64,000 nucleotides of DNA, from assembly GCA_943789275.1 (NCBI GenBank), contig CALSTM010000003.1, positions 596,053 to 660,052 of the forward strand, given 5' to 3'. Below the pieces are notes generated by a model, which saw only the letters and a list, made by a program, of their open reading frames with translations, was not told the origin of the DNA and made no database searches. The stretch is from Candidatus Poseidoniaceae archaeon (GTDB lineage Archaea; Thermoplasmatota; Poseidoniia; Poseidoniales; Poseidoniaceae). Of the stretch, positions 34,911 through 61,055 are shown piece by piece. Numbering within the stretch: position 1 is the first letter of the stretch; each line of letters begins with the position of its first letter. A program made the position numbers and the translations under genes.

Positions 34911-35777
34911 TCACTGGCCAGTGAAGTTGGCAACACGCTTTTCGACGTAGGCAGCAATTCCTTCTTTGGCGTCAGTACTGTTGAACAAAGACGCTTGCAA
35001 CTCACGCTCGAGAGCCAAGTGGTATTCGAATGGAATCTCTGGGCCGGTTTGGCATGAACGCTTGATGTTTCCAACAGCCTTGACTGCCTTGTTTGGTAGA
35101 GTGAATTGACTGCACCAGTCGAGAATGTCTCGACGGAAATCTTCTGCAGAGCCTTCCCAAATGTGGTTGATGAGGTTGCAGCCGTGTGCGTCCTCAAACG
35201 ACATGAGTTCGCCGGTGACCATCATTTCAAGAGCCATTGCCTTACCGATGAGGCGAGTCAAACGAGCAGTTCCACCGGTTCCAGCAAGAACACCAAGGTT
35301 AATTTCTGGAAGTCCGACTTTGCCTGCGTTCTTTCGAGCGATTCGAATGTCTGCAGCCATAGCGATTTCAAGACCGCCACCTACAGCGTGACCGTTGATA
35401 GCACAAACGACGAGCTTCGAAGTTTGCTCAAGTCGAGAAAGAGTTTCATTGGCGTGAAGACAGAAGTTGTACTTGAAACCTGGAGTGACGCTGTTCAACA
35501 TTTGAATGGATGCGCCGGCAGAAAAGAAGGATGCGCCGTTGCCGGTCAAGACAATGCAAGTGACATCGTCATCGAACCGAGCCTTGACAATTGCCGTGTC
35601 AATATCGCACATCATGGCGTGGGTGTAGGTGTTTGGAGAGCGGTCGTTTGCTCCTTCTAAAGGAGCACCTGCTGAGTCCGAGGTGAGTTCAATTACCGCA
35701 ATTCCGTTGGTGGTAACACCGTAGTTGACAAGACGGTTAGGCATAGGTTCGAGTTTGAGTCCATAGAGGTCGCTCAT
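34911..35777 (-). CDS. Enoyl-CoA hydratase/isomerase (crotonase) family protein.
   Basis: IAVIELTSD...FFSAGASI...INGHAVGGGLEIAMAADIRIA...GLPEINLGVLAGTGGTARL is the crotonase fold signature. The internal ATG at 35777 is chosen, and the ORF track extends to 35810. Confidence 0.8.
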   Translation of the reverse strand: MSDLYGLKLEPMPNRLVNYGVTTNGIAVIELTSDSAGAPLEGANDRSPNTYTHAMMCDIDTAIVKARFDDDVTCIVLTGNGASFFSAGASIQMLNSVTPGFKYNFCLHANETLSRLEQTSKLVVCAINGHAVGGGLEIAMAADIRIARKNAGKVGLPEINLGVLAGTGGTARLTRLIGKAMALEMMVTGELMSFEDAHGCNLINHIWEGSAEDFRRDILDWCSQFTLPNKAVKAVGNIKRSCQTGPEIPFEYHLALERELQASLFNSTDAKEGIAAYVEKRVANFTGQ

Positions 35778-35821
35778 ACATCGACCCACAAGGATTCGCA
35801 TTAAGAACAAATCGCTTTGAA

Positions 35822-37084
35822 TTACTGCGCATCGGTATCGGTTTCAGTATCTTTGGAAAACGAGAGTTTCGCCCCTTGTTTACGAACTTCAGTCCACTGC
35901 TCACCAATGGCAAGTGCTTCAGGTGATTGCTCCCAGACATCTCGTTTGAGGGCTTTACGGAACGGCATTCGACGAACTCCTCGACCGTGAGCCTTGGCGT
36001 CTTTTTCGAGCATGAACGGATTGACGATTCGATAGAGAAGAGATTTGAGCAGCGTTGGGCGGAACAGTTTTCCAATCCAAACTAAGCCGTCCCCACGCTT
36101 CTTCTGGTCTTTCATCCATGCTTTGCACATTCGCTTGAACATACGGTCACCAACACGATTCATCAACCATCGGTTGGCTACACTGGTACGTACATACGGC
36201 ATGAGGTGCTCTCTGACATCCGCTTCATAGTCGCCTTTACCGAGAATGTCATTCGCGGCTAGAACGCCCGACCAGACTGCCATTCTCATGCCGAAGCCCC
36301 ACATGAAATCCTGTAGGCCGCCTGATTCACCAACGTAGTATCGACCGTCTTGCTTGTAATTCCTGTTGATGGTGAAGTCACCTTTACCACCAACTCGCTT
36401 GATGGGTTTACGGTTCAAGTTTGGATAATGTGCTTCGTACCAGGCAATCGTTTCGTTGAGGAACCGTTCACTTTTCTTCTGTTTGCGCCACAAGCACGTA
36501 CAGATCAAGCCAACGCCATCGATGATGATGAGGTAGGAATAGGAACCAGGTGCCAATTTGTCGTTGAGTTGGAAGCCAATATGGTTTGGATGGTCGGTAT
36601 GAAAGATTTCCCCATAGGCAACTGCAGAGGTGCCCTTTGGCCCACAAGCGATAATGGTGCAGTCTTCTTCTTTGACCCTTGACTTGTAATGGATTTGAAC
36701 ACCGGCAGCCAAGGCTTGTCGCTTGAAACCTTGGTCGATGGTATGGTCGGATGTTCCTCGTTCAATGATTCGATAAGCAGTTCCTGGGGTGGTGGCTTGT
36801 GTAATGACATCGTCAGGGTGAATAAGGTCGACCACATCAAATTCTGTTGCTTTGAATTCCGATAAGTCGAAGCCCCATTCTTTCAACTGCTCAAAGAAAT
36901 CAACGCCCATACTCCAGTTTTCCAAGGCTTGGAAATCGCCGTCAAAGCGAGCACCAGAATCGGAGCGAATGTCGTGGACATGGACTTCCTTACCGCCCTT
37001 GGCCAACACCGTGGCAGCAGCAAGACCCGAGAGTCCTGCGCCCATGATGTGGATGGCCTCTTCGCTGCCCATGACACCTCCCAT
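35822..37084 (-). CDS. FAD-dependent oxidoreductase (geranylgeranyl-reductase-like or FAD-monooxygenase family).
   Basis: The N-terminal dinucleotide-binding motif HIMGAGLSGLAAATVLAKGGKEVHVHD (GxGxxG) is present. The ORF is 420 aa. Confidence 0.6.
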   Translation of the reverse strand: MGGVMGSEEAIHIMGAGLSGLAAATVLAKGGKEVHVHDIRSDSGARFDGDFQALENWSMGVDFFEQLKEWGFDLSEFKATEFDVVDLIHPDDVITQATTPGTAYRIIERGTSDHTIDQGFKRQALAAGVQIHYKSRVKEEDCTIIACGPKGTSAVAYGEIFHTDHPNHIGFQLNDKLAPGSYSYLIIIDGVGLICTCLWRKQKKSERFLNETIAWYEAHYPNLNRKPIKRVGGKGDFTINRNYKQDGRYYVGESGGLQDFMWGFGMRMAVWSGVLAANDILGKGDYEADVREHLMPYVRTSVANRWLMNRVGDRMFKRMCKAWMKDQKKRGDGLVWIGKLFRPTLLKSLLYRIVNPFMLEKDAKAHGRGVRRMPFRKALKRDVWEQSPEALAIGEQWTEVRKQGAKLSFSKDTETDTDAQ

Positions 37085-37101
37085 ACAGGCGTGAGGTTTG
37101 A

Positions 37102-37551: not shown

Positions 37552-37562
37552 GAGTTGACACC

Positions 37563-38012
37563 ATGGAAAGAGAAATCGAAGGAATTGTAGAAATCGGTGC
37601 GAAAGCCGTTGTTGAACGCCGTGCCTCGGCAACAGGCCTCCTCAAACTAAGTGCTGAATCGGCACAAGCGATTCAAACAAAATCAGTCAAGAAAGGCGAT
37701 GTTTTGGAAGCCTCCACCATTGCTGCAATCCAAGCGGTGAAAGACACGCCACGCATTGTTCCGCATTGTCACCCAATCCCTCTGGAAGGATGTAAGGTCC
37801 AATGGGCGTGGGAAGGGAACGCACTGCGTTGTACCGTTCATGTCTCAGCCCATTACAAGACTGGCATCGAAATGGAGGCGCTTACAGGAGTAAGTGCAGG
37901 CCTCTTGTGTGCGCTGGACATGGTCAAATCCATTGAGAAAGACGAGAACGGTCAGTATCCCGGAACTTCCATTTCAGACATCGTTGTCCTTGAGAAGTTC
38001 AAAGGTCAGTAA
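37563..38012 (+). CDS. moaC: Cyclic pyranopterin monophosphate synthase accessory protein MoaC.
   Basis: KKGDVLEASTIAAIQAVKDTPRIVPHCHPIPLEG...TGIEMEALTGVSAGLLCALDMVKSIEKD matches MoaC (KGDVxxxAxIAGIxAAKxTxxLIPLCHPL...TGVEMEALTAxSVAALTIYDMCKAV). The ATG at 37563 avoids overlap with moaE. Confidence 0.85.
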   Translation: MEREIEGIVEIGAKAVVERRASATGLLKLSAESAQAIQTKSVKKGDVLEASTIAAIQAVKDTPRIVPHCHPIPLEGCKVQWAWEGNALRCTVHVSAHYKTGIEMEALTGVSAGLLCALDMVKSIEKDENGQYPGTSISDIVVLEKFKGQ

Positions 38013-39709
38013 TTCTCAGAAAGAACTTCTTTCGCGCACTGCAGTATGCGTTCGTTTTCTTTTTGTGAACGAATGGCGAATCGAACGGCCTTATTGGTGA
38101 GGGATACACCCATGTTTTGAGCATCCCGAATGAACACACCTTTGCCTTTACACGCTTCGATAAACGAGGCTGAAGTATGGTGTGTATGCTCGGGTAAGAA
38201 CGTCAAGATGAAATTAGCAACACCGGGTAGAACGGTAAACTTCTCTTCGTTCAACAAGCGGCTGAGCTCTTCCCTTTGCTGGTGAATGATGTTGTATTGC
38301 TGTCGGTAATATTCAGGGTTACGCAGTGCTGCAACCGCTGCGAGTTGTCCCGGTAGGCTAACGGCCCATGGCGGAATGAACCGCCGTAGTTCGTTCATCT
38401 TTTGACCGACCGCATAGGCTACACGCAGTCCTGACAGCGCGTAGCATTTGCTCATGCTTTTGCAGACGATGAGGCTTGGCGTGGTCGCAACCATCGATTC
38501 TAGCGATTGTGCTTCCGGTATGTAGTCGATGTAGGTCTCATCAACCCAAATCATCTTGCAACGGGTAGGGGATTCACTTTCATCTTGGATTCGGCGTACA
38601 ATCTCACTCATTTCTTCGCTGTAAACGCCCGTCGGACTGTTGGGATTGACAAAAATCACGGCATCGTGGAGGCGCGATTGTTCGACCAAATCATCAGCAT
38701 TGATCTGAAAACCGTCTTCTTGGTGAAGAACAAAGTTCGTCATATGGCAACCAATGACATGGGTGAGGATGTGACTGTATTCACCGTACATCGGCGAGAG
38801 TACCATCACGTTCGAATCTTGATTGAGCAATTGCGGCAGGAACGAGAACATCAACGAGGAGGAACCCGATGATACGGCAACATGCTTGGCGTTCACGCCA
38901 CGGACATCAGCAACCGTTTCAATCAGTTCTTCACATTGCGTCGGAGGAGATTCTTGGCAACATCGTTCAAGTTGTTCCCGCAAAACATCGAGTGCTTCGG
39001 GACAAGGTGGGAACGGGCTATCGAGCACGTCGGCAACCACCAAGGAATCACGAATTTCAAAATCGAACTTCGAAGTATCCCATGACTTGCCGCCGTGGTA
39101 GCAAACATCATCATCATCTTCTAAATTGATGTCAGCATCGATGCGTAGGGCGTGTTCCTTCATCACTTTTATGGGGTTTAGGTACATTGGATAATACAAC
39201 GTTTGACCGTGCAGAACTCCGTGTTCATCAAAGACAGTCATGCCGTTTTTCCGGTACAACTCTGCAACTTCGGAATGTCCCATAGCGACGATATCTGTGC
39301 CGTCTCTTTCCAGGATAAATTCGAGCGCATACCGCATCAATCGGAATGAAATGTTCTGTCCTCGGAAAGCCGGATTTACGGTGAGAGCTCGAACTTCAAA
39401 GGTCGTGTTAAGTCGATGTTCGCATTCAGCATAGACCGTTTGTTCAAGAGTTTCTTTTGAGAAATAAGTGGTTATTCGGAACGGTTTTTCTTGAGGTGGA
39501 TTGAGGCTGATGTATCCTGCGAGGACTCCGTTTTCCACGCAAGCGATAAAGTGACGTCCAGGGTCTTCGATTTTTTGTTCGGAATTGGCATCGTATTGTT
39601 GCAATTCGTTGGCATACACTTCATGACGAAGTCGAGAGATGCCGTTCCAAATCTGTACAACTTCTTTGTCATCGGGGAGCGGGTAATCAAAGTGCAAGAA
39701 ATCTGCCAT
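38006..39709 (-). CDS. Fusion protein: N-terminal GNAT-type N-acetyltransferase fused to a C-terminal class I/II PLP-dependent aminotransferase (HisC/CobD-like).
   Basis: The N-terminal ~200 aa has a GNAT-like core (VRALTVNPAFRGQNISFRLMRYALEFI). The C-terminus has aminotransferase blocks (VFVNPNSPTG..., WVDETYIDY, and a lysine block KSMSKCYALSGLRVAYAVG). Confidence 0.65.
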   Translation of the reverse strand: MADFLHFDYPLPDDKEVVQIWNGISRLRHEVYANELQQYDANSEQKIEDPGRHFIACVENGVLAGYISLNPPQEKPFRITTYFSKETLEQTVYAECEHRLNTTFEVRALTVNPAFRGQNISFRLMRYALEFILERDGTDIVAMGHSEVAELYRKNGMTVFDEHGVLHGQTLYYPMYLNPIKVMKEHALRIDADINLEDDDDVCYHGGKSWDTSKFDFEIRDSLVVADVLDSPFPPCPEALDVLREQLERCCQESPPTQCEELIETVADVRGVNAKHVAVSSGSSSLMFSFLPQLLNQDSNVMVLSPMYGEYSHILTHVIGCHMTNFVLHQEDGFQINADDLVEQSRLHDAVIFVNPNSPTGVYSEEMSEIVRRIQDESESPTRCKMIWVDETYIDYIPEAQSLESMVATTPSLIVCKSMSKCYALSGLRVAYAVGQKMNELRRFIPPWAVSLPGQLAAVAALRNPEYYRQQYNIIHQQREELSRLLNEEKFTVLPGVANFILTFLPEHTHHTSASFIEACKGKGVFIRDAQNMGVSLTNKAVRFAIRSQKENERILQCAKEVLSENY

Positions 39710-43744: not shown

Positions 43745-44371
43745 ATGGCGGTTCAGCAAGTTCGCATCGAAGTTCGGTTGCCGGAAGGCCATTGGGCGGG
43801 GGATGTAACGCGCAGCCACCCTTCAGCAGTCTTGCGAATCGAGGAACACATGCCCTTGCAGAAGGGAAGAGGGACGGCTCGTGCTTCATGCAGTGAGGAG
43901 ATTACTGCTACGGTATCGGAACATTCTGGTATCGAAGAAGTCCGCAGTTTTGGGAAACAGAGTTTTGTGGTGGACATTATTGCAGGAGGTGGAGGTTTTC
44001 TCAAACCACTTCTCAAAGTCGGCGTAATCCCACATACACCGTTCGAGGTTCGGGACGGTTGGGTCGAATGGACCATTTCATGCGCTCGTGAAAAAGTGCG
44101 AGATTTGCTTTCTGGCTTTGATGATGAAGACATTCCCTACCAACTGGTTTCGACGCGTGGAGTCACCAATCGATTGCTCACACCTCGTCAACGCTATGTG
44201 TTTGATACGGCCATGAAGGAAGGGTACTACGATGTGCCACGACGTATCACATTGACCGAGTTAGCCGTTGTCCTTGACGTTGCGAAATCCACTTTGTCTG
44301 CACAACTCCATCTCATCGAATCAACGGTACATCACGCCTTTGCTGATGATATCCGTCGGCGTAGCCCCTAA
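43745..44371 (+). CDS. Bat-type HTH_10 transcription regulator with an N-terminal sensor-like domain.
   Basis: The C-terminus LTPRQRYVFDTAMKEGYYDVPRRITLTELAVVLDVAKSTLSAQLHLIEST is a canonical HTH_10 motif. An internal ATG at 43745 is chosen over the ORF-track start at 43529. Confidence 0.6.
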   Translation: MAVQQVRIEVRLPEGHWAGDVTRSHPSAVLRIEEHMPLQKGRGTARASCSEEITATVSEHSGIEEVRSFGKQSFVVDIIAGGGGFLKPLLKVGVIPHTPFEVRDGWVEWTISCAREKVRDLLSGFDDEDIPYQLVSTRGVTNRLLTPRQRYVFDTAMKEGYYDVPRRITLTELAVVLDVAKSTLSAQLHLIESTVHHAFADDIRRRSP

Positions 44372-44429
44372 CATGTTCGTACGAACATGTTCGCAAAGGC
44401 AATAAGGTGGACCCACCCATCCTCTCACC

Positions 44430-45590
44430 ATGGACAACCTACCGAATACATGGGAAGACTGGATTTCAAACTTTACCGAATGGCAAGACCGCGTCGGATT
44501 TGACCGCGATTGGATGGGTGACTTTGACCTCTCCATTCAGTTCGACTGGGACCGTGCTGGTGACCTCATCGAATACGGCGACTATGCAGGACGCCCAAAG
44601 TGGGAACGTTCGCTCCAAGTTCCTCAGCAAAGCATGCGCGACGCTCTTGTCAGTATGATTACCGTTCAGGGCGACACAGAATTCGCTTCCGTTGAACAAC
44701 AACGTCACCTTCTCGCCTCCGCACCAACGGACTACGACCGCTATGCAGCTGCCAGGATCATGGCCGAAGAACAACGCCATGGATGGCAAATGGCTTACCT
44801 TTTGATGACCTACTTTGGACAACAAGGACGTCGCGAGGCACAAAAACTCCTCGAGCGCAACGCCCAAGACGGCGATCGATTGCTTGGTGCTTTCAACCGC
44901 CCAATGCCACACTGGCTCGATTTCTTCTGCTACACCATGTTTGTTGACCGTGACGGTAAGTTCCAACTTGGCATGCTCTCAACATCCGCTTTCAAGCCTC
45001 TGGCTGCGTCCATGGGACCAATGCTCAAGGAAGAGTCGTTCCACCTTGGAACCGGCTCCAACGGATTGCGCCGAGTCATCAAGGCCGGTATTATCCCGCT
45101 CGACATGCTTCAGAAATTCTTCAACAAGTGGGTTTCAACCGCACATGACTTGTTTGGTGTCGACGCATCATCTTCGGCTCACTGGTCGTATGTCTGGGGT
45201 GTTAAAGGACGCTGGGACGAGCGCAAGAAACTCGAAGCTGGTATTGAAGTGGACAAGGAAGTTCTCAATGAAGAAGCCCGAGGCCACTACCACGCAGAGA
45301 TTGTTGCTGAAGTTGCTAAACTCAATGGATACCTTCCAGAAGGCAGCACTCCGCTGATCGTTCCTCACGAAAACTTCAACCGTGACATTGGTGCATTCAA
45401 GCGTCAACGCTTCACCATCGAAGGTACGCCGTTCGAAGGCAGCGATGAAGAGTGGGACGCCTACATGGATTCGGCTCTTCCAAACGCATCGGACGAAGCA
45501 CAACTCAAAGAATTTTTCAAGCAAGAATGGGTCGCTAACAAGCCGATGTCTGCTCGTCAAATCGCATCCGGTATCGGTGCCAAAGTTTGA
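44430..45590 (+). CDS. Ferritin-like di-iron oxygenase of the PaaA/BoxB (aryl-CoA epoxidase) family.
   Basis: The di-iron ligand blocks AEEQRHGWQMAYLL and LKEESFHLGTG resemble the PaaA blocks QDEAGHGLYLYS and CKEESFHQRQG. Confidence 0.5.
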   Translation: MDNLPNTWEDWISNFTEWQDRVGFDRDWMGDFDLSIQFDWDRAGDLIEYGDYAGRPKWERSLQVPQQSMRDALVSMITVQGDTEFASVEQQRHLLASAPTDYDRYAAARIMAEEQRHGWQMAYLLMTYFGQQGRREAQKLLERNAQDGDRLLGAFNRPMPHWLDFFCYTMFVDRDGKFQLGMLSTSAFKPLAASMGPMLKEESFHLGTGSNGLRRVIKAGIIPLDMLQKFFNKWVSTAHDLFGVDASSSAHWSYVWGVKGRWDERKKLEAGIEVDKEVLNEEARGHYHAEIVAEVAKLNGYLPEGSTPLIVPHENFNRDIGAFKRQRFTIEGTPFEGSDEEWDAYMDSALPNASDEAQLKEFFKQEWVANKPMSARQIASGIGAKV

Positions 45591-45604
45591 GACCCGTACG
45601 CTCT

Positions 45605-45610: not shown

Positions 45611-45615
45611 TAACT

Positions 45616-46152
45616 ATGATTCCAGTCTCATTGTACGGTATCGACGTCGAAAAGTGCGAAGCGTTCTACGCAGCACTGCCCGGACTTGTGGCGGACACGG
45701 TCGACGATGAAAAGTACGCGAACGCTCTGTTTTCCATTGAAAGTGAAGCATCCCTTGAACACATCCGTGTCGCTGACCAATGGTCAGACAACGACCCTTT
45801 CGTTTGGCCTGAAGACATCTCGAACGAAGTAGAAATGACGCTTCGTACCGTGAACTATCCTGACGTGTCCCTGCTGGAACACCTCTTAACCCTCGACAAT
45901 GTGGACGCTGCTCGTGTTTCAACATGGATGCACTTCTCGACCAACTTGTTTCCTCTGTACACAGAGGCTGCTTGTGCCACTCTGACTCGAATGGGTGTTC
46001 CGACGCCCTATGACCCAACCGACATTGCCAGTTATGGGCTCTATGTTTCTCGCATTGAAGGCTTGAAACTTTACGCACCTGCGGCTGGTCTGCCTGAAAT
46101 CGGCTTACCCCGTTCACGCATGCTCCAACTCGGATTGGAGCGGTTTTCATGA
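45616..46152 (+). CDS. Hypothetical protein of 178 aa immediately downstream of the PaaA-like oxygenase. It is a possible partner subunit.
   Basis: The ATG at 45616 is preceded by GGAGGG at 45605-45610. The ORF-track start at 45382 would overlap the upstream CDS. Confidence 0.45.
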   Translation: MIPVSLYGIDVEKCEAFYAALPGLVADTVDDEKYANALFSIESEASLEHIRVADQWSDNDPFVWPEDISNEVEMTLRTVNYPDVSLLEHLLTLDNVDAARVSTWMHFSTNLFPLYTEAACATLTRMGVPTPYDPTDIASYGLYVSRIEGLKLYAPAAGLPEIGLPRSRMLQLGLERFS

Positions 46153-47069
46153 AGAACCTCTTGGTTCACATGAAATTAATATTTGTCGTCATCGTTTGGG
46201 GTTTTGGCTGGCCTGCTGGTCGTGTGATTGCACAAGACATTGCCCCGTTTGCAGCCTCATGGATTCGTTACGTCGTCGCTGTCGCTTTGTTTGTGATTTA
46301 CCTCAAACTCTCCAGTCAGTGGATGATTCCTACTCGAGGTGAATGGAAAAGAATTGCTTGGATCGGTTTTTTTGCAACCTGTCTGTATCAGGCCTTCTTC
46401 ATGGTTGGAATGAAATACACCGCAGCCGGCGACGCATCTTTGATGATTACCTTCAATCCCTTTTTCACTGCCGTTCTTGCCATTTTCTTCCTCAATGAAG
46501 CGATGCACTGGCGACTCGGTGCGGGTATTGCTCTGGGTCTAGCAGGTGTAACCGTTCTCTTTCTCTACTCACCAAACGTCGACATTCCGTTCTATGAACG
46601 GGCACTTGGTGATGTTCTCATCGCAGGTGCTGCCTTTGCGTGGGCTTGCAACTCCATCCAAATGAAAATTGCAATGACAGAACCGGCCGTAGATTCGGAC
46701 CGTTGTCTCTCTCCGTTGCAGCTCACCGTCTGGTCCTCTGTGATTGGCCTGGTGATGTTGACTCCAATCGCAGCAGTTGAAACTGCAGTTATGGGGATTC
46801 CTGAACCGTCGTTTGATGGTTGGGTTGCCATTCTATTCCTTGCCATCTTCTCGACCGTTGTTTCGTACGTTTGGTTTGCTGACGGTATACTTACCATCGG
46901 GGCAGGTAAAAGTGCCTTGTACGTCTATCTTGTACCCATCTTCGGCATTTACAGCGGCTATTTACTGCTTGACGAGAAACTCGGTGCTTCGCTTCTGGTT
47001 GCCTTCGTGTTGATTGTCGGCGGTGTTGCGCTTGCCCAAAGCAAGCAACACGCTGTCAAGGAAGCATGA
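46149..47069 (+). CDS. EamA/DMT-family (drug/metabolite) transporter.
   Basis: A 306-aa protein with 10 predicted TM helices in the two-EamA-domain pattern. Its start overlaps the previous stop by 4 nt (ATGA). Confidence 0.75.
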   Translation: MKNLLVHMKLIFVVIVWGFGWPAGRVIAQDIAPFAASWIRYVVAVALFVIYLKLSSQWMIPTRGEWKRIAWIGFFATCLYQAFFMVGMKYTAAGDASLMITFNPFFTAVLAIFFLNEAMHWRLGAGIALGLAGVTVLFLYSPNVDIPFYERALGDVLIAGAAFAWACNSIQMKIAMTEPAVDSDRCLSPLQLTVWSSVIGLVMLTPIAAVETAVMGIPEPSFDGWVAILFLAIFSTVVSYVWFADGILTIGAGKSALYVYLVPIFGIYSGYLLLDEKLGASLLVAFVLIVGGVALAQSKQHAVKEA

Positions 47070-47094
47070 TGAAGTCCGGCCTGTTGGGTCACGC

Positions 47095-47982
47095 ATGGAG
47101 ATTCGTTGCGTAGCGGTTATCGGCGCAGGAACAATGGGTGCTGGAATTGCACAAGTTTGTGCTCAAAGCGGTTGGAAAACGAACCTGTTTGACGCCTTTC
47201 CGGAAGGGTTGGAGCGAGGTATGGCTCGAATTGATGCATTTTGGGACAAGGGAATCGCTCGAGGTAAGACGACTCTTGAGCAAAAGGAGTCGTGGAGTGC
47301 GAACCTCCACGCTGTATCGAACATGGCTGAGGCAGTAGCGCAGGCAGACATGATCATCGAAGCAGTTCCAGAAATACCGGACTTGAAACACTCCATTTTT
47401 GCCGAATTGGACAAACTTGCTCAACCTCATGCCATACTTGGTACAAACACTTCATCGCTCTCCATTGCAGATATTGCGGCAGCGACTTCTCGCCCTGAAA
47501 GCGTCATTGGTATGCATTTCTTTAATCCAGTTCCAATCATGAAGTTGCTCGAACTCGTTCGACATGATTCGACCAGTGAACATACAGTTGCAGTTGCTCA
47601 AGCAGCCGGTGCTGCAATGGGTAAAACGACAATTCTTGTCAAAGACATCCCAGGGTTTGCGACCAGTCGACTTGGCGTTGTTCTTGGAAACGAAGCCATC
47701 CGTATGCTGGCCGATGGTGTTGCGAGTGCCAAAGACATTGACACTGCAATGGTACTCGGCTACAAACATCCAATGGGACCGTTGGCCCTAACCGATTTGG
47801 TTGGTCTTGATGTGCGCCGTGATATTCTCAAGAATTTACAAACCTCGTTCAACGATGATGCCTATGCACCCCATCCGATGTTGGAAAAACTCGTCGCCTC
47901 AGGCCGTTTGGGTAAGAAATCCGGTAAGGGGATCTACGATTGGTCCACCGGCGAGGCAGTTGAGACTGAGCTACCTGAATGA
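47095..47982 (+). CDS. 3-hydroxyacyl-CoA (3-hydroxybutyryl-CoA) dehydrogenase.
   Basis: The N-terminus VAVIGAGTMGAGIAQV carries the NAD-binding motif. Also present are ...EAVPEIPDLKHSIF...TNTSSLSI...GMHFFNPVP...ELV... and the C-terminal dimerisation block YKHPMGPLALTDLVGLDV. Confidence 0.88.
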   Translation: MEIRCVAVIGAGTMGAGIAQVCAQSGWKTNLFDAFPEGLERGMARIDAFWDKGIARGKTTLEQKESWSANLHAVSNMAEAVAQADMIIEAVPEIPDLKHSIFAELDKLAQPHAILGTNTSSLSIADIAAATSRPESVIGMHFFNPVPIMKLLELVRHDSTSEHTVAVAQAAGAAMGKTTILVKDIPGFATSRLGVVLGNEAIRMLADGVASAKDIDTAMVLGYKHPMGPLALTDLVGLDVRRDILKNLQTSFNDDAYAPHPMLEKLVASGRLGKKSGKGIYDWSTGEAVETELPE

Positions 47983-48803
47983 TTCAGTTCATAGCCGCAG
48001 TGTTTGCAATGTTTTGCGTTTGAGTCGTGGCCTTCTTTGGAACACTGCATGCAAGCACGAGTGCTGAAATCTCCAGCCTTGATGAGTTCGGTTGAGATAA
48101 TTCCTGTCGGGACGATGATGAGGCTGTATCCCATGATCATAATGAATATCGCCAGCACTTTGCCAACTGGAGTCAACGGGACGGTATCTCCGTATCCGGT
48201 ACTCGTCAAGGTTACAATCGCCCAATAGACGCTTTGGGGAATGGAAGTGAATCCGTTTTCAGGCCCTTCAAACAGGTACATGCCGGCACCGGTAATAAAA
48301 CTGAGAATGGTGACCGTGGTCAAGAAGACAATAATTCTTGAACGTGATTCGAGAATTGCAGCACCGAGTATCGATGCTTCGCCGACGTATCGGGTGAGTT
48401 TGAACACTCGAAAAACTCGGAGCAGACGCAGTGCACGGATGATGAGAAGGCTTTGAGCTCCGGGGATGAAAAAGCTCAGGTAGGTTGGAAGAATTGCCAA
48501 AAGGTCCACTATTCCGAAGAACGAGGTTGCGTACTCTATCGAATGGCGAGTGATGTAGAGGCGCGTGAAGTATTCAATGGTGAACAAGATGGTGAAAAAC
48601 CATTCAGCAAAAACCAATTCTGTGTGGTACTGTGAATTGATGCTGTCCACACTTTCAAGCGAGACCGCGATAATCGAGCCAATAATGGATACGAGTAATG
48701 CTGCATCAAAGTAGGTGCCGTACTTGGTATCGGCTTCAAATATGATTTCGTGCATTTTTTCCCGAAACGATTTTTCTTCTACCGTTTCAGACACGAACTT
48801 CAC
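47934..48803 (-). CDS. Voltage-gated K+ channel (6-TM Kv/KvAP-like) with a C-terminal Cys4 zinc-ribbon.
   Basis: The S4 arginine ladder is LRALRLLRVFRVFKLTRY. The selectivity filter is TLTSTGYGDTVP. The C-terminus is CMQCSKEGHDSNAKHCKHCGYEL. Confidence 0.85.
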   Translation of the reverse strand: MKFVSETVEEKSFREKMHEIIFEADTKYGTYFDAALLVSIIGSIIAVSLESVDSINSQYHTELVFAEWFFTILFTIEYFTRLYITRHSIEYATSFFGIVDLLAILPTYLSFFIPGAQSLLIIRALRLLRVFRVFKLTRYVGEASILGAAILESRSRIIVFLTTVTILSFITGAGMYLFEGPENGFTSIPQSVYWAIVTLTSTGYGDTVPLTPVGKVLAIFIMIMGYSLIIVPTGIISTELIKAGDFSTRACMQCSKEGHDSNAKHCKHCGYELNHSGSSVSTASPVDQS

Positions 48804-49588
48804 TCCTTGTGAAACACTGGCTTACGCTTGTCAAGAAAGGCAGTCACGCCTTCTTTGAACGCTTCAGTCGTTCCTGCTGCCTCGATGAGGGTGCGTTCAT
48901 GGTTGAGGTGGGATTCGAAATCCTGTGACGATTGGACATGAAGTAAATGCTTGGTTGCTTCTTTGGTGTGTTCGCCCCATTGACTCCATCGAGCAGCCAT
49001 AGAACACGCTGCGTCAACGAGTCTGTCTGCATCAACAAGAGCATCTGCTGCACCAACGGCTACGCATTGCTCTGCATTCCAAATTTCGTTTTCCAAAAAG
49101 AACCGTCGTGAGACCTGTTCGCCGACCAGCCGAGGAAGGAGCCATGTTGTCCCACCATCCGGTGAAAGTCCCATGCCAGCATAGGATGCAGCCATTTTCG
49201 CTTGAGGCGAGGCGATACGAGCGTCACACGCTAGAGCCAGTCCAAGGCCACCACCTGCACTTGCACCGTTGAGGGCTGCAATGGTGATGGTTGGTGATTG
49301 CCGCATTCGTATCAGCAGTGGGTGAAGGATTCCTGTAAGGTCACGAATCAACTGAGGCGCTTCTTTGTCTTCAATCGATTGAGCGAAGGCATTGATGTCA
49401 GCACCTGCAGAGAAGAACTTCCCTTCTCCAGTAAGGACCAACGCTCGGACGTTTGGGTGAGTGAGTCCAGCATCGATGGCTTGGACGATGTGCGGTAAGA
49501 ATTCACGAGAAAACGACTGCGTTGCCGATGGACCAGAGAATTGAATGAGACGAATGCCGTTTTCCAAATCGGTAGATTCTATTGCCAT
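48800..49588 (-). CDS. Enoyl-CoA hydratase/isomerase (crotonase) family protein.
   Basis: VLTGEGKFFSAGADI...ALNGASAGGGLGLALACDARIA is the crotonase signature. Confidence 0.8.
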   Translation of the reverse strand: MAIESTDLENGIRLIQFSGPSATQSFSREFLPHIVQAIDAGLTHPNVRALVLTGEGKFFSAGADINAFAQSIEDKEAPQLIRDLTGILHPLLIRMRQSPTITIAALNGASAGGGLGLALACDARIASPQAKMAASYAGMGLSPDGGTTWLLPRLVGEQVSRRFFLENEIWNAEQCVAVGAADALVDADRLVDAACSMAARWSQWGEHTKEATKHLLHVQSSQDFESHLNHERTLIEAAGTTEAFKEGVTAFLDKRKPVFHKE

Positions 49589-49597
49589 TGTGATCCC

Positions 49598-51034
49598 TCA
49601 AAGTTTGACGTTGACGTTCTTCACCTTGGTGTAGAATCGCAATGCATCTTTGCTTTGCTCTATCCCGATGCCGGATTGTTTCCAACCGGTAAATGCAGTT
49701 TGTGGGAAGGTAATTGGGTACTCGTTAATGGAGACCATGCCGCTTTCCAAATCACGAGCCATCGAATGAGCACGGCTCAAGTTCTGCGTCCAGATGCCGT
49801 TGAGAAGGCCAAACGGTGAGTCGTTCGCAAGGGCGAGTGCTTCAGCATCATCGCTGAATGAAGTGACGGAGAGAACTGGGCCAAACAATTCCTCATTGAA
49901 CAGAAGATTGGAACTGTCAACACCGGTGATAACGGTTGCTTCCATGAAAGCGCCTTCACCTTCGATGATGTTTCCACCGCATACCACTTCTCCACCCATG
50001 GCGAGTCCTGCTTGTAATTTTTCCATGACTTCAGCACGGTGATTTTCGTGAACCAAACTGCCAATTCGTACGCCTTCAGACATACCAGGGCCGACTTTCC
50101 ACTTGGCGACTTCAGCCACGACTGCTTCGACCAACTGGTCATGAACATCTTCGTGAACAATGAGTCGAGAACCAGCCCAGCACATTTGTCCAGCGTTCAT
50201 GAATATGCCAAAGCAGATGGCTTTAGCAGCGTAGCGAAGGTTGGCGTCAGCAAACACGAGGTTTGCTCCTTTTCCACCGAGTTCAAGAGTCACTGGAGTG
50301 AGGTTTTCACTGGCCTTGGCCATGACCGTTTGACCGGTTGGTACACCGCCCGTAAGGACGATTCCGTCCACACCCTTGTGGCCTGCTAAAGCGTCTCCAA
50401 TCAGTCCACCGGAGCCGGTGATCACTTGGAGAACGCCGGTTGGAAGGCCGACTTCTGCTTCTTCCATGGCCTTGGCCCATGCCAAGAGTGACAGCGGAGT
50501 CCACGATGCGGGTTTGGCAATCACGGTGCATCCTGCTGCCAGTGCAGGTGCAATGGAACGGATGGCCAGTTGAAGTGGAAAGTTCCACGGAACGATGTGA
50601 ACGGTAACGCCGAGCGGTTGTCGCAGGGTGTAGTTGAGACGGTTACCCGGAACAGGAATGGTACTGCCTTCGATTTTATCAGATAGACCTGCAAAGTATT
50701 CCAGTGTCCATGCACCGTAGCGAATTTCAGATAGGGCTTCACGGAACGTCTTACCGTTGTTGTTGGATTCTATGGCTGCCAGTTCCTTGGCTTTCGCATA
50801 GGTGGCTTGTGCCATTTTATTGAGGATTCGTCCACGCTGAGCAGGGTCCATTGCTTTCCATGATGGGTCTTCGAACGCTGCACGAGATGCGTCAACGCAA
50901 CGGTTGACGTCGGCGAGAGTTGCTTTGGGTGTTGTCGCCATAACTTCGCCCGTAGCAGGGTTCAGAATATCGGCCGTCGTTCCATCTTCAGCATCACACC
51001 ATACTCCAGCAATTGACATCTGTTCTGCGCTCAT
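49598..51034 (-). CDS. NAD(P)-dependent aldehyde dehydrogenase.
   Basis: The ALDH catalytic blocks ELGGKGANLVF (Glu) and FMNAGQMCWAGSRLIVHE (Cys) are present, as is a GxGxxxG-like GSGGLIGDAL motif. The ATG at 51034 is chosen, and the ORF track extends to 51100. Confidence 0.85.
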   Translation of the reverse strand: MSAEQMSIAGVWCDAEDGTTADILNPATGEVMATTPKATLADVNRCVDASRAAFEDPSWKAMDPAQRGRILNKMAQATYAKAKELAAIESNNNGKTFREALSEIRYGAWTLEYFAGLSDKIEGSTIPVPGNRLNYTLRQPLGVTVHIVPWNFPLQLAIRSIAPALAAGCTVIAKPASWTPLSLLAWAKAMEEAEVGLPTGVLQVITGSGGLIGDALAGHKGVDGIVLTGGVPTGQTVMAKASENLTPVTLELGGKGANLVFADANLRYAAKAICFGIFMNAGQMCWAGSRLIVHEDVHDQLVEAVVAEVAKWKVGPGMSEGVRIGSLVHENHRAEVMEKLQAGLAMGGEVVCGGNIIEGEGAFMEATVITGVDSSNLLFNEELFGPVLSVTSFSDDAEALALANDSPFGLLNGIWTQNLSRAHSMARDLESGMVSINEYPITFPQTAFTGWKQSGIGIEQSKDALRFYTKVKNVNVKL

Positions 51035-51125: not shown

Positions 51126-51818
51126 TTGAAGCAGATTCATTGTGCTTTGTCCATGGCTCGAAATGTAAGTTTGGCTGATGCTGCTGCTCGAACCATTGCT
51201 GACCGAGCACCGAGATTGTTGGTTGTGGCAGGAGCAACCGGAACAGGGAAATCCACTGCCTCGGTTCAATTGGCGGCTGAGAACAACTTCGCACGGCTTC
51301 TTTCAACCGATGCAATACGAGAAATTATGCGTTCTTGCGATGAAGAGCGCAGCCAGTCAGCCCTCCACCGTTCATCCTTTTCACGTGGTGATTCAGGTGA
51401 GCCTGTCCTTGATTGGATGGAAACATGCAAAGCTGTGGAAACTGGAATCATCGCTACGATTGATCGAGCTCGTCGTGAAGGCATCGACTTGATTATCGAA
51501 GGCGTACATATCAATCCAAGTGAACGCTTACTGCGCAGTTGGCGCGAGGCCGGTGGAATTGCAATTGGCCTTGTTATGGCCGTCGGTGAGGAAGACCGTC
51601 ATCGTTCGATGATTCGTTCCCGAGAAGCCCATTCGTTTCGACGTGCAGACCGTTACTTGGCAGCCTTCCCTCGAATTCGCGCCATACAAGACGGGTTAAT
51701 CGAGCGAGCTAAAATTGCATCTTGGCCAATCGTTGATTTATCCCGCGTCAGTAAAGATACTGAACGCATCAAGCACCTCATGGACCTTGCTTGGAACGAA
51801 CACACGCAGCGTCGTTAG
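51126..51818 (+). CDS. P-loop kinase resembling archaeal 2-phosphoglycerate kinase.
   Basis: Walker A motif VAGATGTGKSTASVQLA followed by STDAIREIMR, which is characteristic of the 2-PGK family. Confidence 0.5.
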   Translation: MKQIHCALSMARNVSLADAAARTIADRAPRLLVVAGATGTGKSTASVQLAAENNFARLLSTDAIREIMRSCDEERSQSALHRSSFSRGDSGEPVLDWMETCKAVETGIIATIDRARREGIDLIIEGVHINPSERLLRSWREAGGIAIGLVMAVGEEDRHRSMIRSREAHSFRRADRYLAAFPRIRAIQDGLIERAKIASWPIVDLSRVSKDTERIKHLMDLAWNEHTQRR

Positions 51819-55334: not shown

Positions 55335-55353
55335 CGAATCACTCCACTTTTGT

Positions 55354-56880: not shown

Positions 56881-57010
56881 ACGCGCACCCTCTGCCGAAG
56901 CATTTTGTCACACGCTATGGCCGACTATAACTCTTGGGTGAAAACAACCCCAAAAACCGTTACCTGCGAGCAGAATATTTTCTCCACAATCTCCGTTTTG
57001 ACGGCAGAGT

Positions 57011-57568: not shown

Positions 57569-57630
57569 GCTTGAACGGCGCAGCCGAATGCTCATCAAGA
57601 TACCTCCTTTCAGTAGCCAAAGTTTGCGTT

Positions 57631-59331
57631 TCAGTTTGAGAACTCCGCCTTGCCCCAACGTCGGTCCATCAACTTCCAAAGCAGTGCAGAGGCAAGAATC
57701 AAACCAACCGAGATAGCAATCATGCCTTTGTAACCTTGCTCAACCATGCTCTGGTCGTACATGGAAGCAGTCGCAGCCAGACCGTCTTGCGATGCTCGCT
57801 CCCACCAGTTCCCGTACAGTGACACGTCGCCTTGAGTGAACGACAGCAGGAACAACAGCAACAGCGGGACAACGGTTCCAATCCAAAACCAAATCATAAT
57901 CGATGCATCAAAAATGGCCTTGTTCGGACGTAAACCCATCAAGAAAGCCGTCAGAGCAACGATGTAAACGGAGTTCGCAAACATGACGATGATGCTGGTT
58001 GGAAGCGCACCCCATTCGTCCAATCGCCACGCCATGAGGACAATGAAAATCAGTGAGATCCATGATGTTGCAAGGAAGTAAACCACCACTTTTGCTCGAA
58101 TCAGTTGCGGGACACGGAGAGGGAGTCCGTTCATGAATTCCGGTGAGTCAAGTATGGTCAGCCATGAGTAGAAGTTGAATCCAAAGAAGCCGAGGAAAGG
58201 GGCATACGAAAGTAAATTGATTGGTATTGGGGCTTCTGCAAAGTCAACCAGCCACGCCATTCCAAGCAGAACAAGCAACGGAATGGCGTATGAAACGGTC
58301 ATTTTCTTGAGCGACCCCGAACGGAACAGGTCAACGAATTCTTTCGCCACGATGAGTCGAATCTCACCGCGCCCAAGGAAGCCCAATCGATTGTAAATCG
58401 GGAGAAACAATTCTTTTCGCTCGACAACTGATACGTCGAAGTCATCGATGATGAGGGTGGATGAAAGCCAACCCAATCCGACACTCCCGGCCAAGGCCAG
58501 TAAAGCAGTGAAAGGGTTCTGTGAATTCTGTACGCCGAGTCCCCAGAGCATCGAACCAATGTCGAATTTACCTAAGCCAATCGCGATTCCAAGTACAACG
58601 ATAAGTGCAGGTCCGACGATGGTGTACGGTCGTCCTCGCATCCACAGTGCTGAGGCAAAAAAGGCGATGGCAAGGCCTTGTGCAAGGGTGATAATCATCG
58701 CTAACCAAGTCCATGGCAGGCTTGACCATTCCAGTGGAGTCTTGATGTTCGCCGCCGATTCAAGCAGTATGCCAAGTGCCATTCCGGTGACCACAGGAGT
58801 GAGGATGAGCATGACATAGAAGCACAAGTCTTTGACAAAATAAGCAAAGTGAGCAACCGAATTCGGCAAGGGCTGCAGCGCTGGAGCTGCAAGGAGGTAA
58901 TTCTTGGTTCCTGCCCGGTGAACGATGGCGTCATGACCCATGAAAGCGAACGTACCCATTCCAAGACTGAACATCAACAAGGGGAGGTGGAGCGCAAATC
59001 GGAGTTCATCCCAAGTGAACGTTTTCGATTCCAAGTCGCTCACTTGGGCGGTCGAATCCCCAACTAAAAACTGCAAACCAATGGTCGTCACAGCGGTAAC
59101 CAACGTCAGTAGAAGCGGAAACAACACGATTTGTCGTTTTTTAGCGAACTCAATGCTTTTTCGTCCTTCCTCTTTGAACATCACTCGAAAGGTGGCAGAA
59201 AAGGCGTTCCAACCTCGCAACGGCTCGTGCAAGTGTTGCTGATGTGAACTGGTGCCAAGCGGCTCTTGCAGCGAATGTCCATCGCCAACCACTTCTTCCC
59301 AATCACGTGAGACAACGCTTACTCCTGGCAC
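57631..59331 (-). CDS. Large polytopic ABC-2-type transporter permease.
   Basis: A 566-aa protein with at least 12 hydrophobic helices. It has a GTG start and is separated by only 2 nt from the stop of the upstream ABC ATPase. Confidence 0.6.
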   Translation of the reverse strand: MPGVSVVSRDWEEVVGDGHSLQEPLGTSSHQQHLHEPLRGWNAFSATFRVMFKEEGRKSIEFAKKRQIVLFPLLLTLVTAVTTIGLQFLVGDSTAQVSDLESKTFTWDELRFALHLPLLMFSLGMGTFAFMGHDAIVHRAGTKNYLLAAPALQPLPNSVAHFAYFVKDLCFYVMLILTPVVTGMALGILLESAANIKTPLEWSSLPWTWLAMIITLAQGLAIAFFASALWMRGRPYTIVGPALIVVLGIAIGLGKFDIGSMLWGLGVQNSQNPFTALLALAGSVGLGWLSSTLIIDDFDVSVVERKELFLPIYNRLGFLGRGEIRLIVAKEFVDLFRSGSLKKMTVSYAIPLLVLLGMAWLVDFAEAPIPINLLSYAPFLGFFGFNFYSWLTILDSPEFMNGLPLRVPQLIRAKVVVYFLATSWISLIFIVLMAWRLDEWGALPTSIIVMFANSVYIVALTAFLMGLRPNKAIFDASIMIWFWIGTVVPLLLLFLLSFTQGDVSLYGNWWERASQDGLAATASMYDQSMVEQGYKGMIAISVGLILASALLWKLMDRRWGKAEFSN

Positions 59332-59333
59332 GG

Positions 59334-60125
59334 TTACTCCTCCTCAGTTTCTCCGTCCTTGACACCTTCGTTACTCAGCCGCTCAACATCTTCGATTGAG
59401 CGTCCAACCAAGCGGATGAAGACATCTTCCAACGTCTCTTCATCCGATGTTTTGAGTCCTTTAACGGTGCCAGCGGCGAGGACTTTGCCGTTGTTGATAA
59501 TCGCCATTCGGTTGCACATGCGCTCCGCCATTTCCAGAACGTGTGAACAGAGAAAAATCGTTCCACCGTTTTTCACATGTTCAAGGAGCCATTGGCGGCA
59601 TTTTCGCTGATAAATTGGGTCAAGGTTGGCAAACGGTTCATCGAGGAACAGGAGTTTCGGTTTGTGAATAAACGCAGCAGCAAGCATGACTTTTTGACGT
59701 TGACCTTTGGACAAATCTTTGCACATTGTGTCTCGCTTCTCATCCAGTCCAAACCAGTCAATCCAGTGCTCAACATTGTCATCGATACGGTCAACACTGC
59801 GGAGTTTTGCCACGAACTCAAGGAATTCTACAGGGGTAAGGAAGGACGGTGGTGATTCTGATTCAGGGACAATTCCGATGTTGGCTTTGACCTTCTGGGG
59901 GTCGGACACTGCATTGACTCCCAAAACTTCGATTCGACCTTTACTGGGTCGTAATTGGCCGGTGAGGAGTTTGATGAAGGTGGATTTCCCGGCACCGTTG
60001 GGGCCAAAAACACCGAAGAATTCACCGGCGTGAACTTCGACGTTCAGCGGATGAAGAGCAATGAAGTCACCGTATTTTTTGGCCATGTCTATTGCCTTAA
60101 CGAGCGGTGCGGTCGATTCAACCAT
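59334..60125 (-). CDS. ABC transporter ATP-binding protein.
   Basis: Walker A GPNGAGKSTFIKLL, ABC signature LSKGQRQKV, Walker B LLFLDEPFANLD and the H-loop CSHVLE are all present. The ATG at 60125 is chosen. Confidence 0.88.
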   Translation of the reverse strand: MVESTAPLVKAIDMAKKYGDFIALHPLNVEVHAGEFFGVFGPNGAGKSTFIKLLTGQLRPSKGRIEVLGVNAVSDPQKVKANIGIVPESESPPSFLTPVEFLEFVAKLRSVDRIDDNVEHWIDWFGLDEKRDTMCKDLSKGQRQKVMLAAAFIHKPKLLFLDEPFANLDPIYQRKCRQWLLEHVKNGGTIFLCSHVLEMAERMCNRMAIINNGKVLAAGTVKGLKTSDEETLEDVFIRLVGRSIEDVERLSNEGVKDGETEEE

Positions 60126-60212
60126 ACACTGTGTAAACGGTCGTGGTCTTTGAGTTCTTGGTTGACAGTTCATGAACGGTGAAATGATGAACTGAAACCG
60201 TTTGGCACAACC

Positions 60213-61055
60213 ATGAGCGCACCACAGTCGGATGTATTGTCCATCGAAATCCTTCCAGTAAACGACGAAGCAGACCTCGGTTCAATTGCTTGGGTCACCA
60301 TTAATCGACCCGATAAACTCAATGCACTCAACGCAGATGTCATGTCGAGCATCAAAGCAATGGTTGCGTGGGTGGAAGCAACAGATTCGGTTCGTGTCGT
60401 CGTACTCACTGGCGCTCAACCGAACGAACCTGCGGAAGGAAAGCGGGCCAAACCGAATGCATTTGTTGCCGGTGCCGACATCACCGAATTCGTTGGTAAG
60501 AAGAGCGATGATATCCGAGTAATGTTCACTGACAATGCTGTCGAAGCACTTTGGAATCTCAGTAAACCAACCATAGCCATGGTCGATGGGTTTGCATTGG
60601 GCGGTGGCTGTGAAGTTGCTTGCTCGTGTGATGTTCGTATTGCCAGCGACCGTTCACGGTTCGGGACCCCTGAAATCAACCTTGGACTGATTCCAGGCTA
60701 CGGTGCTACGCAGCGTTTGGTCGGATTGGTTGGCTACGGTAAAACCATGGAAATGATCATGACCGGAGAGATGGTTCATGCTGAGGAAGCACACAGAATT
60801 GGCTTAGCCAACCACGTATGCACTCCTGAAGAACTCCATGCGTTCACCCTCAAGATGGCCCAAACCATCGGTAGCAAATCCTCCAACACACTCCGGGTTG
60901 GAAAGGCAACCATTCGAGCAGCGCTCGATGTTGGTTTGACTGAGGGAGTTGCCATCGAGGCTGAAGCTTTCGCCAGCCTTTTTGATTCGAAGGACAAAGA
61001 GATTGGCGTGAACGCCTTTCTCAATCGGACAACCCCCGAATGGGAACATCAGTGA
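60213..61055 (+). CDS. Enoyl-CoA hydratase/isomerase (crotonase) family protein.
   Basis: VTINRPDKLNAL...VVLTGAQ...FVAGADITEF...MVDGFALGGGCEVACSCDVRIA...GTPEINLGLIPGYGATQRL is the crotonase signature. Confidence 0.85.
   Translation: MSAPQSDVLSIEILPVNDEADLGSIAWVTINRPDKLNALNADVMSSIKAMVAWVEATDSVRVVVLTGAQPNEPAEGKRAKPNAFVAGADITEFVGKKSDDIRVMFTDNAVEALWNLSKPTIAMVDGFALGGGCEVACSCDVRIASDRSRFGTPEINLGLIPGYGATQRLVGLVGYGKTMEMIMTGEMVHAEEAHRIGLANHVCTPEELHAFTLKMAQTIGSKSSNTLRVGKATIRAALDVGLTEGVAIEAEAFASLFDSKDKEIGVNAFLNRTTPEWEHQ

Follow-up and report, generated by a model that had tools for sequence, protein, structure and literature searches.

To our knowledge, no CoA-dependent epoxide pathway (Box or Paa) has been demonstrated in an archaeon, and both pathways have been characterised biochemically in bacteria. 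BoxC is a two-domain crotonase of ~550 amino acids (aa) that acts as a 2,3-epoxybenzoyl-CoA dihydrolase. BoxB is monomeric, works without a structural subunit and contacts BoxA only transiently; BoxC has been reported as necessary to relieve the product inhibition of BoxB (PMC4498308). The identities of the BoxB di-iron ligands and the roles of its benzoyl-CoA pocket residues, including Gln116, which hydrogen-bonds benzoyl-CoA, have also been reported (PMC5489048). PaaA, the catalytic subunit of PaaABCE (PDB 3PW1 and 4IIT; TIGR02156), depends on the structural subunit PaaC. An archaeal di-iron protein of the same superfamily, SSO1313 of Sulfolobus solfataricus (PDB 4MUD), is annotated as a 'ring oxidation complex / phenylacetic acid degradation-related protein', with no function assigned. 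Here, we analysed a 64-kb stretch of contig CALSTM010000003.1 (GCA_943789275.1, positions 596,053 to 660,052), hereafter the window, which comes from a Candidatus Poseidoniaceae archaeon and carries, at 44430-45590 on the + strand, a gene for a BoxB-like di-iron oxygenase among scattered acyl-CoA genes.

Marine Group II (MGII) archaea, to which this host belongs, are globally abundant surface-ocean heterotrophs and among the most abundant planktonic archaea; their carbon sources, chiefly proteins and lipids, have been inferred mainly from genomes. The archaeal origin assumed in the original prediction, which was made from the sequence alone, agrees with the named homologues of the di-iron protein (Poseidoniaceae) and with the taxonomy of the relatives of the locus (Poseidoniales). 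For comparison, one genome of each GTDB species was scanned, which yielded 507 close relatives, and the best 80, all of them Poseidoniales metagenome-assembled genomes (MAGs), provided the related loci used below (1.11 Mb in total). The six genes that the prediction had named, i.e., three crotonases, a 3-hydroxyacyl-CoA dehydrogenase, an aldehyde dehydrogenase (ALDH) and the oxygenase, are all present and give strong family matches; their coordinates are unchanged or differ by start-codon choice, the shorter ones used here corresponding to in-frame ATG codons within maximal open reading frames (ORFs). The best explanation of the region is an ancestral, loosely organised MGII acyl-CoA gene neighbourhood centred on a short, single-subunit BoxB-type oxygenase. 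The best mechanistic reading of the latter, which we hold tentatively and at a little under an even chance, is that of a minimal aryl-CoA oxygenase with an operator of its own.

The di-iron oxygenase

The 386-aa product of 44430-45590 (+) matches the Pfam family PaaA_PaaC (PF05138) with 59 bits (cutoff 28.5), a family that it shares with PaaA together with the di-iron four-helix core. The best NCBIfam model is that of BoxB (TIGR03225; 222 bits, E 1e-65), which aligns over profile positions 63-441 of 471; the PaaA model (TIGR02156) reaches only 37.5 bits against a cutoff of 280. Among solved structures, the best match is A. evansii BoxB (3PER; E 2e-52), with ~50% identity over residues 44-266. 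The archaeal SSO1313 is recognised over residues 60-216 (E 2e-19), but with its 235 aa it comprises the four-helix core only and belongs to another subfamily.

The chain numbering of the BoxB alignment is the published numbering, so that functional residues could be mapped directly. All six BoxB iron ligands are kept: Glu120, Glu150, His153, Asp211, Glu240 and His243 correspond to E84, E114, H117, D173, E202 and H205 in the MGII protein. Five of the seven residues of the benzoyl-CoA pocket are identical (Gln116, Thr119, Ser123, Phe193 and Phe203, corresponding to Q80, T83, S87, F155 and F165), and the remaining two are changed (Phe206 to Tyr168 and Thr210 to Val172). These ligand and pocket states, F206Y and T210V included, are invariant in 13 of 13 aligned MGII sequences.

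An AlphaFold2 model of the oxygenase, built from a 31-sequence alignment, has a mean pLDDT of 94.6. When this model was compared with known structures using Foldseek, the top matches were BoxB chains only, the best being 3Q1G and 3PM5 (E ~2e-22, TMq 0.84-0.87). SSO1313 (TMq 0.49) and PaaA (TMq ~0.5) came next, followed by R2-like oxidases and desaturases at ~0.3-0.4. BoxB thus ranks first by profile, by PDB sequence and by fold, and neither MiaE nor a desaturase, the other ferritin-like families that the original prediction had considered, takes its place; the PaaA/BoxB-type assignment made there holds, with BoxB as the closer of the two. Judging from its sequence and predicted structure, the protein is a genuine BoxB-family di-iron enzyme, in which the metal site is intact and the benzoyl-CoA pocket largely so. 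It has in common with BoxB the ferritin-like di-iron fold (TMq 0.86), the six ligands, the five pocket residues and a single-subunit architecture; PaaA is far more distant and, unlike the MGII protein, needs a structural subunit. Since BoxB itself is monomeric and contacts BoxA only transiently (PMC4498308), a stand-alone short form is mechanistically plausible. Public annotations of the MGII gene carry the labels 'benzoyl-CoA oxygenase component B', 'boxB' or 'PaaI'. High expression of the gene has been reported from the Red Sea (PMC5069720), and our literature search found no functional study of the MGII BoxB-like protein.

Distant relatives of the oxygenase

Within MGII, homologues of the di-iron protein fall into more than 100 protein clusters, with identities of 84-95%; those that carry a name belong to Candidatus Poseidoniaceae, Poseidonia or Marine Group II. 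An exhaustive HMMER search among 1.84 billion representatives retrieved only 848 relatives. Among bacteria, full-length proteins of 350-390 aa came from a small number of rare clusters, assigned to an unclassified bacterium, Burkholderiales, Myxococcota and Planctomycetota. With the BoxB model, such short forms reach 100-234 bits, versus 672-908 bits for canonical representatives. The oxygenase belongs to a distinct short BoxB-like subfamily of ~350-390 aa. In a neighbour-joining tree (200 bootstraps), the canonical BoxB clade and the MGII clade received 92% and 100% support, respectively, on a weakly supported backbone. One member of the short group, a Myxococcota protein of 367 aa (P0188), has lost most of the iron ligands (E120H, E150N, H153S, D211N and E240H) and is probably a non-catalytic derivative.

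The genomic contexts of nine distant short-form homologues included boxA or boxC in none of the nine and revealed no consistent partner gene; an AMP-binding ligase was nearby in one of the nine. One informative context is that of a bacterial contig (ERZ25766727; locus L090, 9001-11817), where a short BoxB-like gene with 63% identity is followed by a NuoE-like (2Fe-2S) and a NuoF-like (Complex1_51K) gene and is preceded by CMD, CoA-transferase III and MaoC genes. The NuoE/NuoF-like pair is a possible dedicated NADH-dependent reductase for the short BoxB-like subfamily. In other bacterial contigs (L081/L091/L092, L084 and L093), the short BoxB-like gene repeatedly has MgtE, HSP20, CBS-domain and methyltransferase genes in its vicinity, arranged in different ways; the contigs may owe this recurrence to common descent, or the gene may be functionally connected with stress or magnesium homeostasis.

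Promoter, regulator and operon of the oxygenase

Upstream of the oxygenase gene, we identified a candidate operator at 44368-44393, which consists of two tandem copies of the palindrome CGAACATGTTCG. The double palindrome reads cTAACATGTTCG TA CGAACATGTTCG and lies immediately 5′ of a promoter-like element, CAAAGGCAATAAGGT (44394-44408, +), which resembles a transcription factor B recognition element (BRE) with a TATA box and is conserved in almost every one of the 80 related loci. In the 1.11 Mb of these loci, 67 exact copies of the operator 12-mer occur, and every one of these 67 occurrences lies 20-80 bp upstream of an oxygenase start. Within the window, the two operator sites are the only ones at one mismatch or less, and matches with two mismatches are at the level expected by chance. 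The sequence ATAAGG is located at -28 to -23 relative to the ATG of the oxygenase; by analogy with archaeal promoter geometry, CAAAGGCAATAAGGT would act as a BRE/TATA promoter and imply a leaderless or very short-leader mRNA.

A gene for an HTH_10-family transcription regulator (PF04967, E 1e-13) is located at 43746-44371 (+), and an HTH_10 gene is directly 5′ of the oxygenase gene in 77 of the 80 loci. This regulator probably reads the double palindrome, and the two can be regarded as a candidate operator-regulator pair. Whatever the substrate of the oxygenase, the conserved double palindrome and the HTH_10 protein offer a clean, testable candidate of this kind in an uncultivated archaeal lineage.

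The oxygenase gene is followed on the same strand by genes at 45616-46152, 46149-47069 and 47095-47982. Given the common strand and the spacing (a 25-bp gap, an overlap and a second 25-bp gap), the four genes probably form one operon. The third encodes an EamA/DMT-family transporter (PF00892, E 1e-39) with weak NCBIfam matches to carboxylate, amino-acid and amine transporters. The last encodes an Hbd-type 3-hydroxyacyl-CoA dehydrogenase (47095-47982, +; maximal ORF 47014-47982), with matches to 3HCDH_N (E 4e-61) and 3HCDH (E 1e-31); its best NCBIfam model is PRK09260 (324 bits, cutoff 429), and PaaH reaches 245 bits against a cutoff of 669.

The small ORF at 45616-46152 (+), which had been proposed as a partner of the oxygenase, is indeed a coding and conserved gene. 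It has a GGAGG ribosome-binding site, its stop codon overlaps the ATG of the EamA gene (ATGA), and its 178-aa product is found with ~69% identity in 76 of the 80 loci; the named ones among its 192 database homologues are from Poseidoniaceae or MGII. An ORF on the opposite strand, 45614-46150 (-), was rejected as non-coding (~40% identity, 24 loci only). The partner role did not hold: the product matches no Pfam or NCBIfam family and has a predicted HhH-GPD DNA-glycosylase-like fold, and we rejected it as an oxygenase subunit of the PaaB/C/D or BoxA-like type. In HhH-GPD glycosylases, the catalytic Asp, with or without a Lys, is normally located downstream of the HhH motif. In the small ORF product, the HhH-like segment LPEIGLPRSRMLQLGLERF closes the protein, and no residue follows it at the usual place of the catalytic Asp.

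Acyl-CoA enzymes in the neighbourhood

The crotonase at 48800-49588 (-; ECH_1 E 5e-45) has an isomerase-type active site. In an alignment with Thermus thermophilus PaaG, it has neither of the two glutamates of hydratases but shares with PaaG the Asp of the G-L-x-P-D motif (GLSPDGG versus GLVPDSG). The PaaG proteins of T. thermophilus and E. coli are among its best PDB matches, but DspI-type and generic hydratase/isomerases count among its nearest relatives there as well. Its top NCBIfam model is 'oxepin-CoA hydrolase, alternative type' (NF046063; 176 bits, cutoff 300), and PaaG follows with 152 bits (cutoff 345). By its active-site residues, this crotonase is predicted to be a PaaG-type isomerase rather than a hydratase.

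Located 10 bp upstream of this crotonase gene and co-directional with it, the gene at 49598-51034 (-; maximal ORF to 51100) encodes a generic class 1/2 NAD(P)+ ALDH (Aldedh E 6e-159). The protein reaches no equivalog cutoff, its best model being that of betaine-aldehyde dehydrogenase (447 bits, cutoff 668), and its NCBIfam and PDB matches show no clear preference among hydroxymuconic-semialdehyde, betaine-aldehyde, retinal and phenylacetaldehyde dehydrogenases. An ALDH that adjoins a PaaG-type crotonase resembles the arrangement of split PaaZ substitutes. The gene at 51126-51818 (+) encodes a P-loop kinase that resembles 2-phosphoglycerate kinase (2-PGK) and mevalonate-3-phosphate 5-kinase at sub-cutoff scores; it always adjoins the ALDH/crotonase pair.

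The other two crotonases, at 34911-35777 (-; maximal ORF to 35810; ECH_1 E 6e-44) and 60213-61055 (+; ECH_1 E 2e-54), both keep the catalytic Glu/Glu pair and are predicted to be an enoyl-CoA hydratase and a short-chain enoyl-CoA hydratase (crotonase proper; PRK05809, 231 bits, cutoff 394), respectively. These two are ordinary hydratases. All three crotonases are single-domain proteins of 262-299 aa, and BoxC is outside the best 25 NCBIfam matches of each. More generally, the assignment by profile models that the original prediction had called for placed BoxB first for the oxygenase, but every enzyme of the set scores under its NCBIfam equivalog cutoff.

The 34911-35777 hydratase, which is 92% identical across loci, follows in the same predicted operon a gene for an orphan FAD/NAD(P)-binding flavoprotein of 420 aa (35822-37084, -), of which an N-terminal dinucleotide-binding motif is the sole recognisable part. 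The best 120 of its 723 homologues, where named, are from MGII or Thermoplasmatota, and the flavoprotein gene always accompanies the conserved hydratase gene, with predicted co-transcription. As a speculation, the flavoprotein is a candidate electron donor or could provide an extra redox step.

Gene order in the two MGII families

The usual gene order in Poseidoniaceae is hydratase (-), flavoprotein (-), MoaE, MoaC, glpX, HTH_10 and the BoxB-like gene, followed by the small ORF, EamA, dehydrogenase, PaaG-type crotonase (-), ALDH (-) and the 2-PGK-like kinase. In four loci (L059, L073, L075 and L080), the kinase-ALDH-crotonase block is inverted as a unit, with ALDH and crotonase still co-directional. 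In an MGIIb (Thalassarchaeaceae) MAG annotated by Damashek et al., the genes for the flavoprotein and the hydratase directly precede, in this order, the BoxB-like gene (KEGG K15512), and these three and a 186-aa ORF adjoin one another on a single strand; a second contig of this MAG carries the third crotonase type, the kinase, an ALDH and a KEGG-paaG crotonase within 4 kb (PMC9723583 supplementary file 4). The persistence of acyl-CoA genes near the oxygenase in both MGII families, despite rearrangement, hints at a functional link. The 'highly transcribed 3-hydroxyacyl-CoA dehydrogenase' reported for MGII (PMC9723583) was considered as a counterpart of the operon dehydrogenase and rejected, as that gene is a fusion that joins an enoyl-CoA hydratase to a 3-hydroxyacyl-CoA dehydrogenase (K15016).

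In the mechanism that we propose, the oxygenase would bind an aromatic acyl-CoA thioester, i.e., benzoyl-CoA or a close, possibly ring-substituted, analogue. The ring would then be epoxidised or hydroxylated with O2 and two electrons, supplied by a donor that is not encoded adjacent to the oxygenase. The enzyme would be expressed from a leaderless operon together with the glycosylase-like protein, the EamA transporter and the Hbd-type dehydrogenase, under the control of the double palindromic operator, probably read by the HTH_10 regulator next door. Downstream conversion could be carried out by the pair of ALDH and PaaG-type crotonase, the Glu/Glu hydratases and the dehydrogenase.

The Paa/Box-like pathway logic of the original prediction is retained insofar as a PaaG-type crotonase lies behind an ALDH and the genes are kept close to each other; it is not retained as regards the defining partners, which are absent, and the ALDH, like the hydratases and the dehydrogenase, is of a generic kind. 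Breakdown of an aromatic ring by this gene set is plausible but unproven. A wider proposal is that MGII carry, as a core and specifically regulated function, a minimal single-subunit BoxB-type aryl-CoA epoxidase without BoxA and BoxC, which starts an archaeal aerobic 'hybrid' (CoA-dependent, epoxide-forming) ring cleavage that the PaaG-type crotonase/ALDH pair and ordinary beta-oxidation enzymes finish. We consider this full scheme rather unlikely. If true, however, it would give MGII a previously unrecognised role in the turnover of aromatic acids, whether these come from aromatic amino acids or from dissolved organic matter of phytoplankton origin; the MGII diet would extend to aromatic dissolved organic matter, and a minimal oxygenase independent of BoxA and BoxC would be defined.

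Alternative explanations

Several observations weigh against an aryl-CoA oxygenase. First, the MGII protein departs from canonical BoxB. It is ~90 residues shorter, lacking the ~60 N-terminal residues, a 19-residue insertion after residue 217 and a further insertion of 20-40 residues near residue 270, and its BoxB score of 222 bits is far under the equivalog cutoff of 499. In the phylogeny that had been suggested as a check, whose backbone is weakly supported, the MGII sequences fall with the rare short forms of bacteria and not in the canonical BoxB clade.

Second, the partners of the known pathways are missing. BoxA, BoxC, PaaZ/MaoC, an aryl-CoA ligase and a thiolase are absent from the window and from ~95 related loci, which together made up the partner-gene check. 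PaaB, PaaC, PaaD and PaaE were likewise found neither in the window nor in the related loci examined, and a BoxA-type architecture (two [4Fe-4S] clusters with a FAD/NADPH module) occurs in no ORF of the window or of these loci. The ORFs of the window also include no acyl-CoA dehydrogenase, Fe-S/FNR reductase or AMP-binding domain. Unlike bacterial boxB, the MGII gene, in its archaeal host, has no boxA, boxC or benzoate-CoA ligase gene beside it. Since BoxB depends on BoxC for relief from product inhibition (PMC4498308), the absence of BoxC is a real gap.

These absences also bear on the possibility that the window encodes a complete equivalent of the canonical bacterial Box or Paa pathway, whose missing subunits would lie at other sites of the genome. 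Only the general logic speaks for it, as an oxygenase, an isomerase, hydratases, a dehydrogenase and an ALDH are all present. Against it stand the lack of BoxA, BoxC, PaaBCDE and PaaZ throughout the loci examined, the scores of the oxygenase under both the BoxB and PaaA equivalog cutoffs, and the fact that the short-form homologues examined have no link to BoxA or BoxC, whatever their lineage. We regard this explanation as highly improbable.

Third, the very high conservation of the oxygenase and its core-gene status fit a housekeeping function at least as well as niche catabolism, and the other bacterial short forms stand alone in unrelated contexts, near HSP20, MgtE or TetR genes. The BoxB-like protein could be a housekeeping or stress-related ferritin-like di-iron protein, with a part in the control of oxidative damage or in the hydroxylation of a cofactor or of nucleosides, and tied to the glycosylase-like protein and the transporter rather than to acyl-CoA metabolism. 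The 84-95% identity across MGII would be in line with such a role, as would the predicted co-transcription with the HhH-GPD-like protein and the HSP20, Lon, CMD/AhpD-like or glyoxalase genes found near bacterial short forms; a Red Sea metatranscriptome study, moreover, mentions the oxygenase among highly expressed MG-II genes (PMC5069720). Nevertheless, the conserved pocket residues are specific to the benzoyl-CoA site of BoxB, the model fits the BoxB fold (TMq 0.86) far better than R2-like and desaturase-type ferritin folds (0.3-0.4), and a dedicated operator with its regulator is more typical of an inducible function. A housekeeping role is improbable in our estimation; if it were true, the widespread 'benzoyl-CoA oxygenase / boxB' label on MGII genes would be misleading and in need of correction.

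Fourth, the links between the oxygenase and the other acyl-CoA genes are loose. In the window and the 80 loci, the operator precedes neither the ALDH/crotonase pair nor the hydratases, and a shared regulon was rejected because the operator is confined to the oxygenase promoter; it thus does not tie the other acyl-CoA genes to the oxygenase. Synteny within a single order is generally high, so that the closeness of these genes is no proof of a functional link and, inside one archaeal order, constitutes weak evidence of shared function. The acyl-CoA genes are, furthermore, interspersed with unrelated ones, i.e., glpX, MoaE/MoaC, BioY, the EamA transporter, an ion channel, pilus/type II secretion system (T2SS)-like genes and an ABC ATPase.

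The neighbours may be ordinary enzymes of beta-oxidation or amino-acid catabolism, and the BoxB-like protein unrelated to them, with a non-aromatic or non-CoA substrate and a co-location that is mere synteny. MGII lipid degradation is well known, and PaaG-type enzymes double as delta3,delta2-enoyl-CoA isomerases, which are required for unsaturated fatty acids. In agreement with this explanation, the enoyl-CoA hydratases, the dehydrogenase and the ALDH stay under all pathway-specific NCBIfam cutoffs, with generic best matches and, for the ALDH, many specificities; two of the crotonases are classical Glu/Glu hydratases; the operator is restricted to the oxygenase promoter; and the bacterial homologues have no consistent CoA-pathway context. 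Beta-oxidation is also a recognised MGII trait (PMC9723583). On the other side, the residues with which BoxB positions the benzoyl-CoA thioester and ring are conserved in the MGII protein, and the operon of the oxygenase includes a 3-hydroxyacyl-CoA dehydrogenase. A hydratase gene immediately precedes the oxygenase gene on the same strand in the MGIIb MAG (PMC9723583 supplementary file 4), and one bacterial homologue lies beside CoA-transferase and MaoC genes. We consider this explanation quite possible while leaning against it, and retain the minimal aryl-CoA oxygenase as the preferred reading.

Other genes of the window

Further ORFs of the window encode giant He_PIG/RCC1 surface proteins, a GNAT-aminotransferase fusion, Rce1 and Ham1. 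Comparison with the related loci marks the window's GNAT, BNR, BioY and ion-channel genes as lineage-specific insertions. The GNAT gene (38006-39709, -) encodes an unusual fusion of an N-terminal GNAT acetyltransferase with a class I/II aminotransferase that resembles CobD or HisC; the fusion is present in a minority of the related loci only, which identifies it as such an insertion. The segment 52711-56880 (-) encodes a type-IV-pilus or archaellum-like assembly module of one T2SSE/PilB-like ATPase and two membrane proteins with T2SSF domains, a block that is not at the matching place in the MGIIb MAG (PMC9723583). Finally, six very large ORFs on the + strand (2785-13092, 13677-23309 and 23432-33121; 3435, 3210, 819, 462, 1020 and 896 aa) consist of He_PIG Ig-like repeats. 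RCC1-like beta-propeller repeats occur in addition in the 3435- and 3210-aa ORFs, the shorter of which also carries a Laminin_G_3 domain. The run presumably encodes giant MGII proteins of the cell surface or for adhesion.

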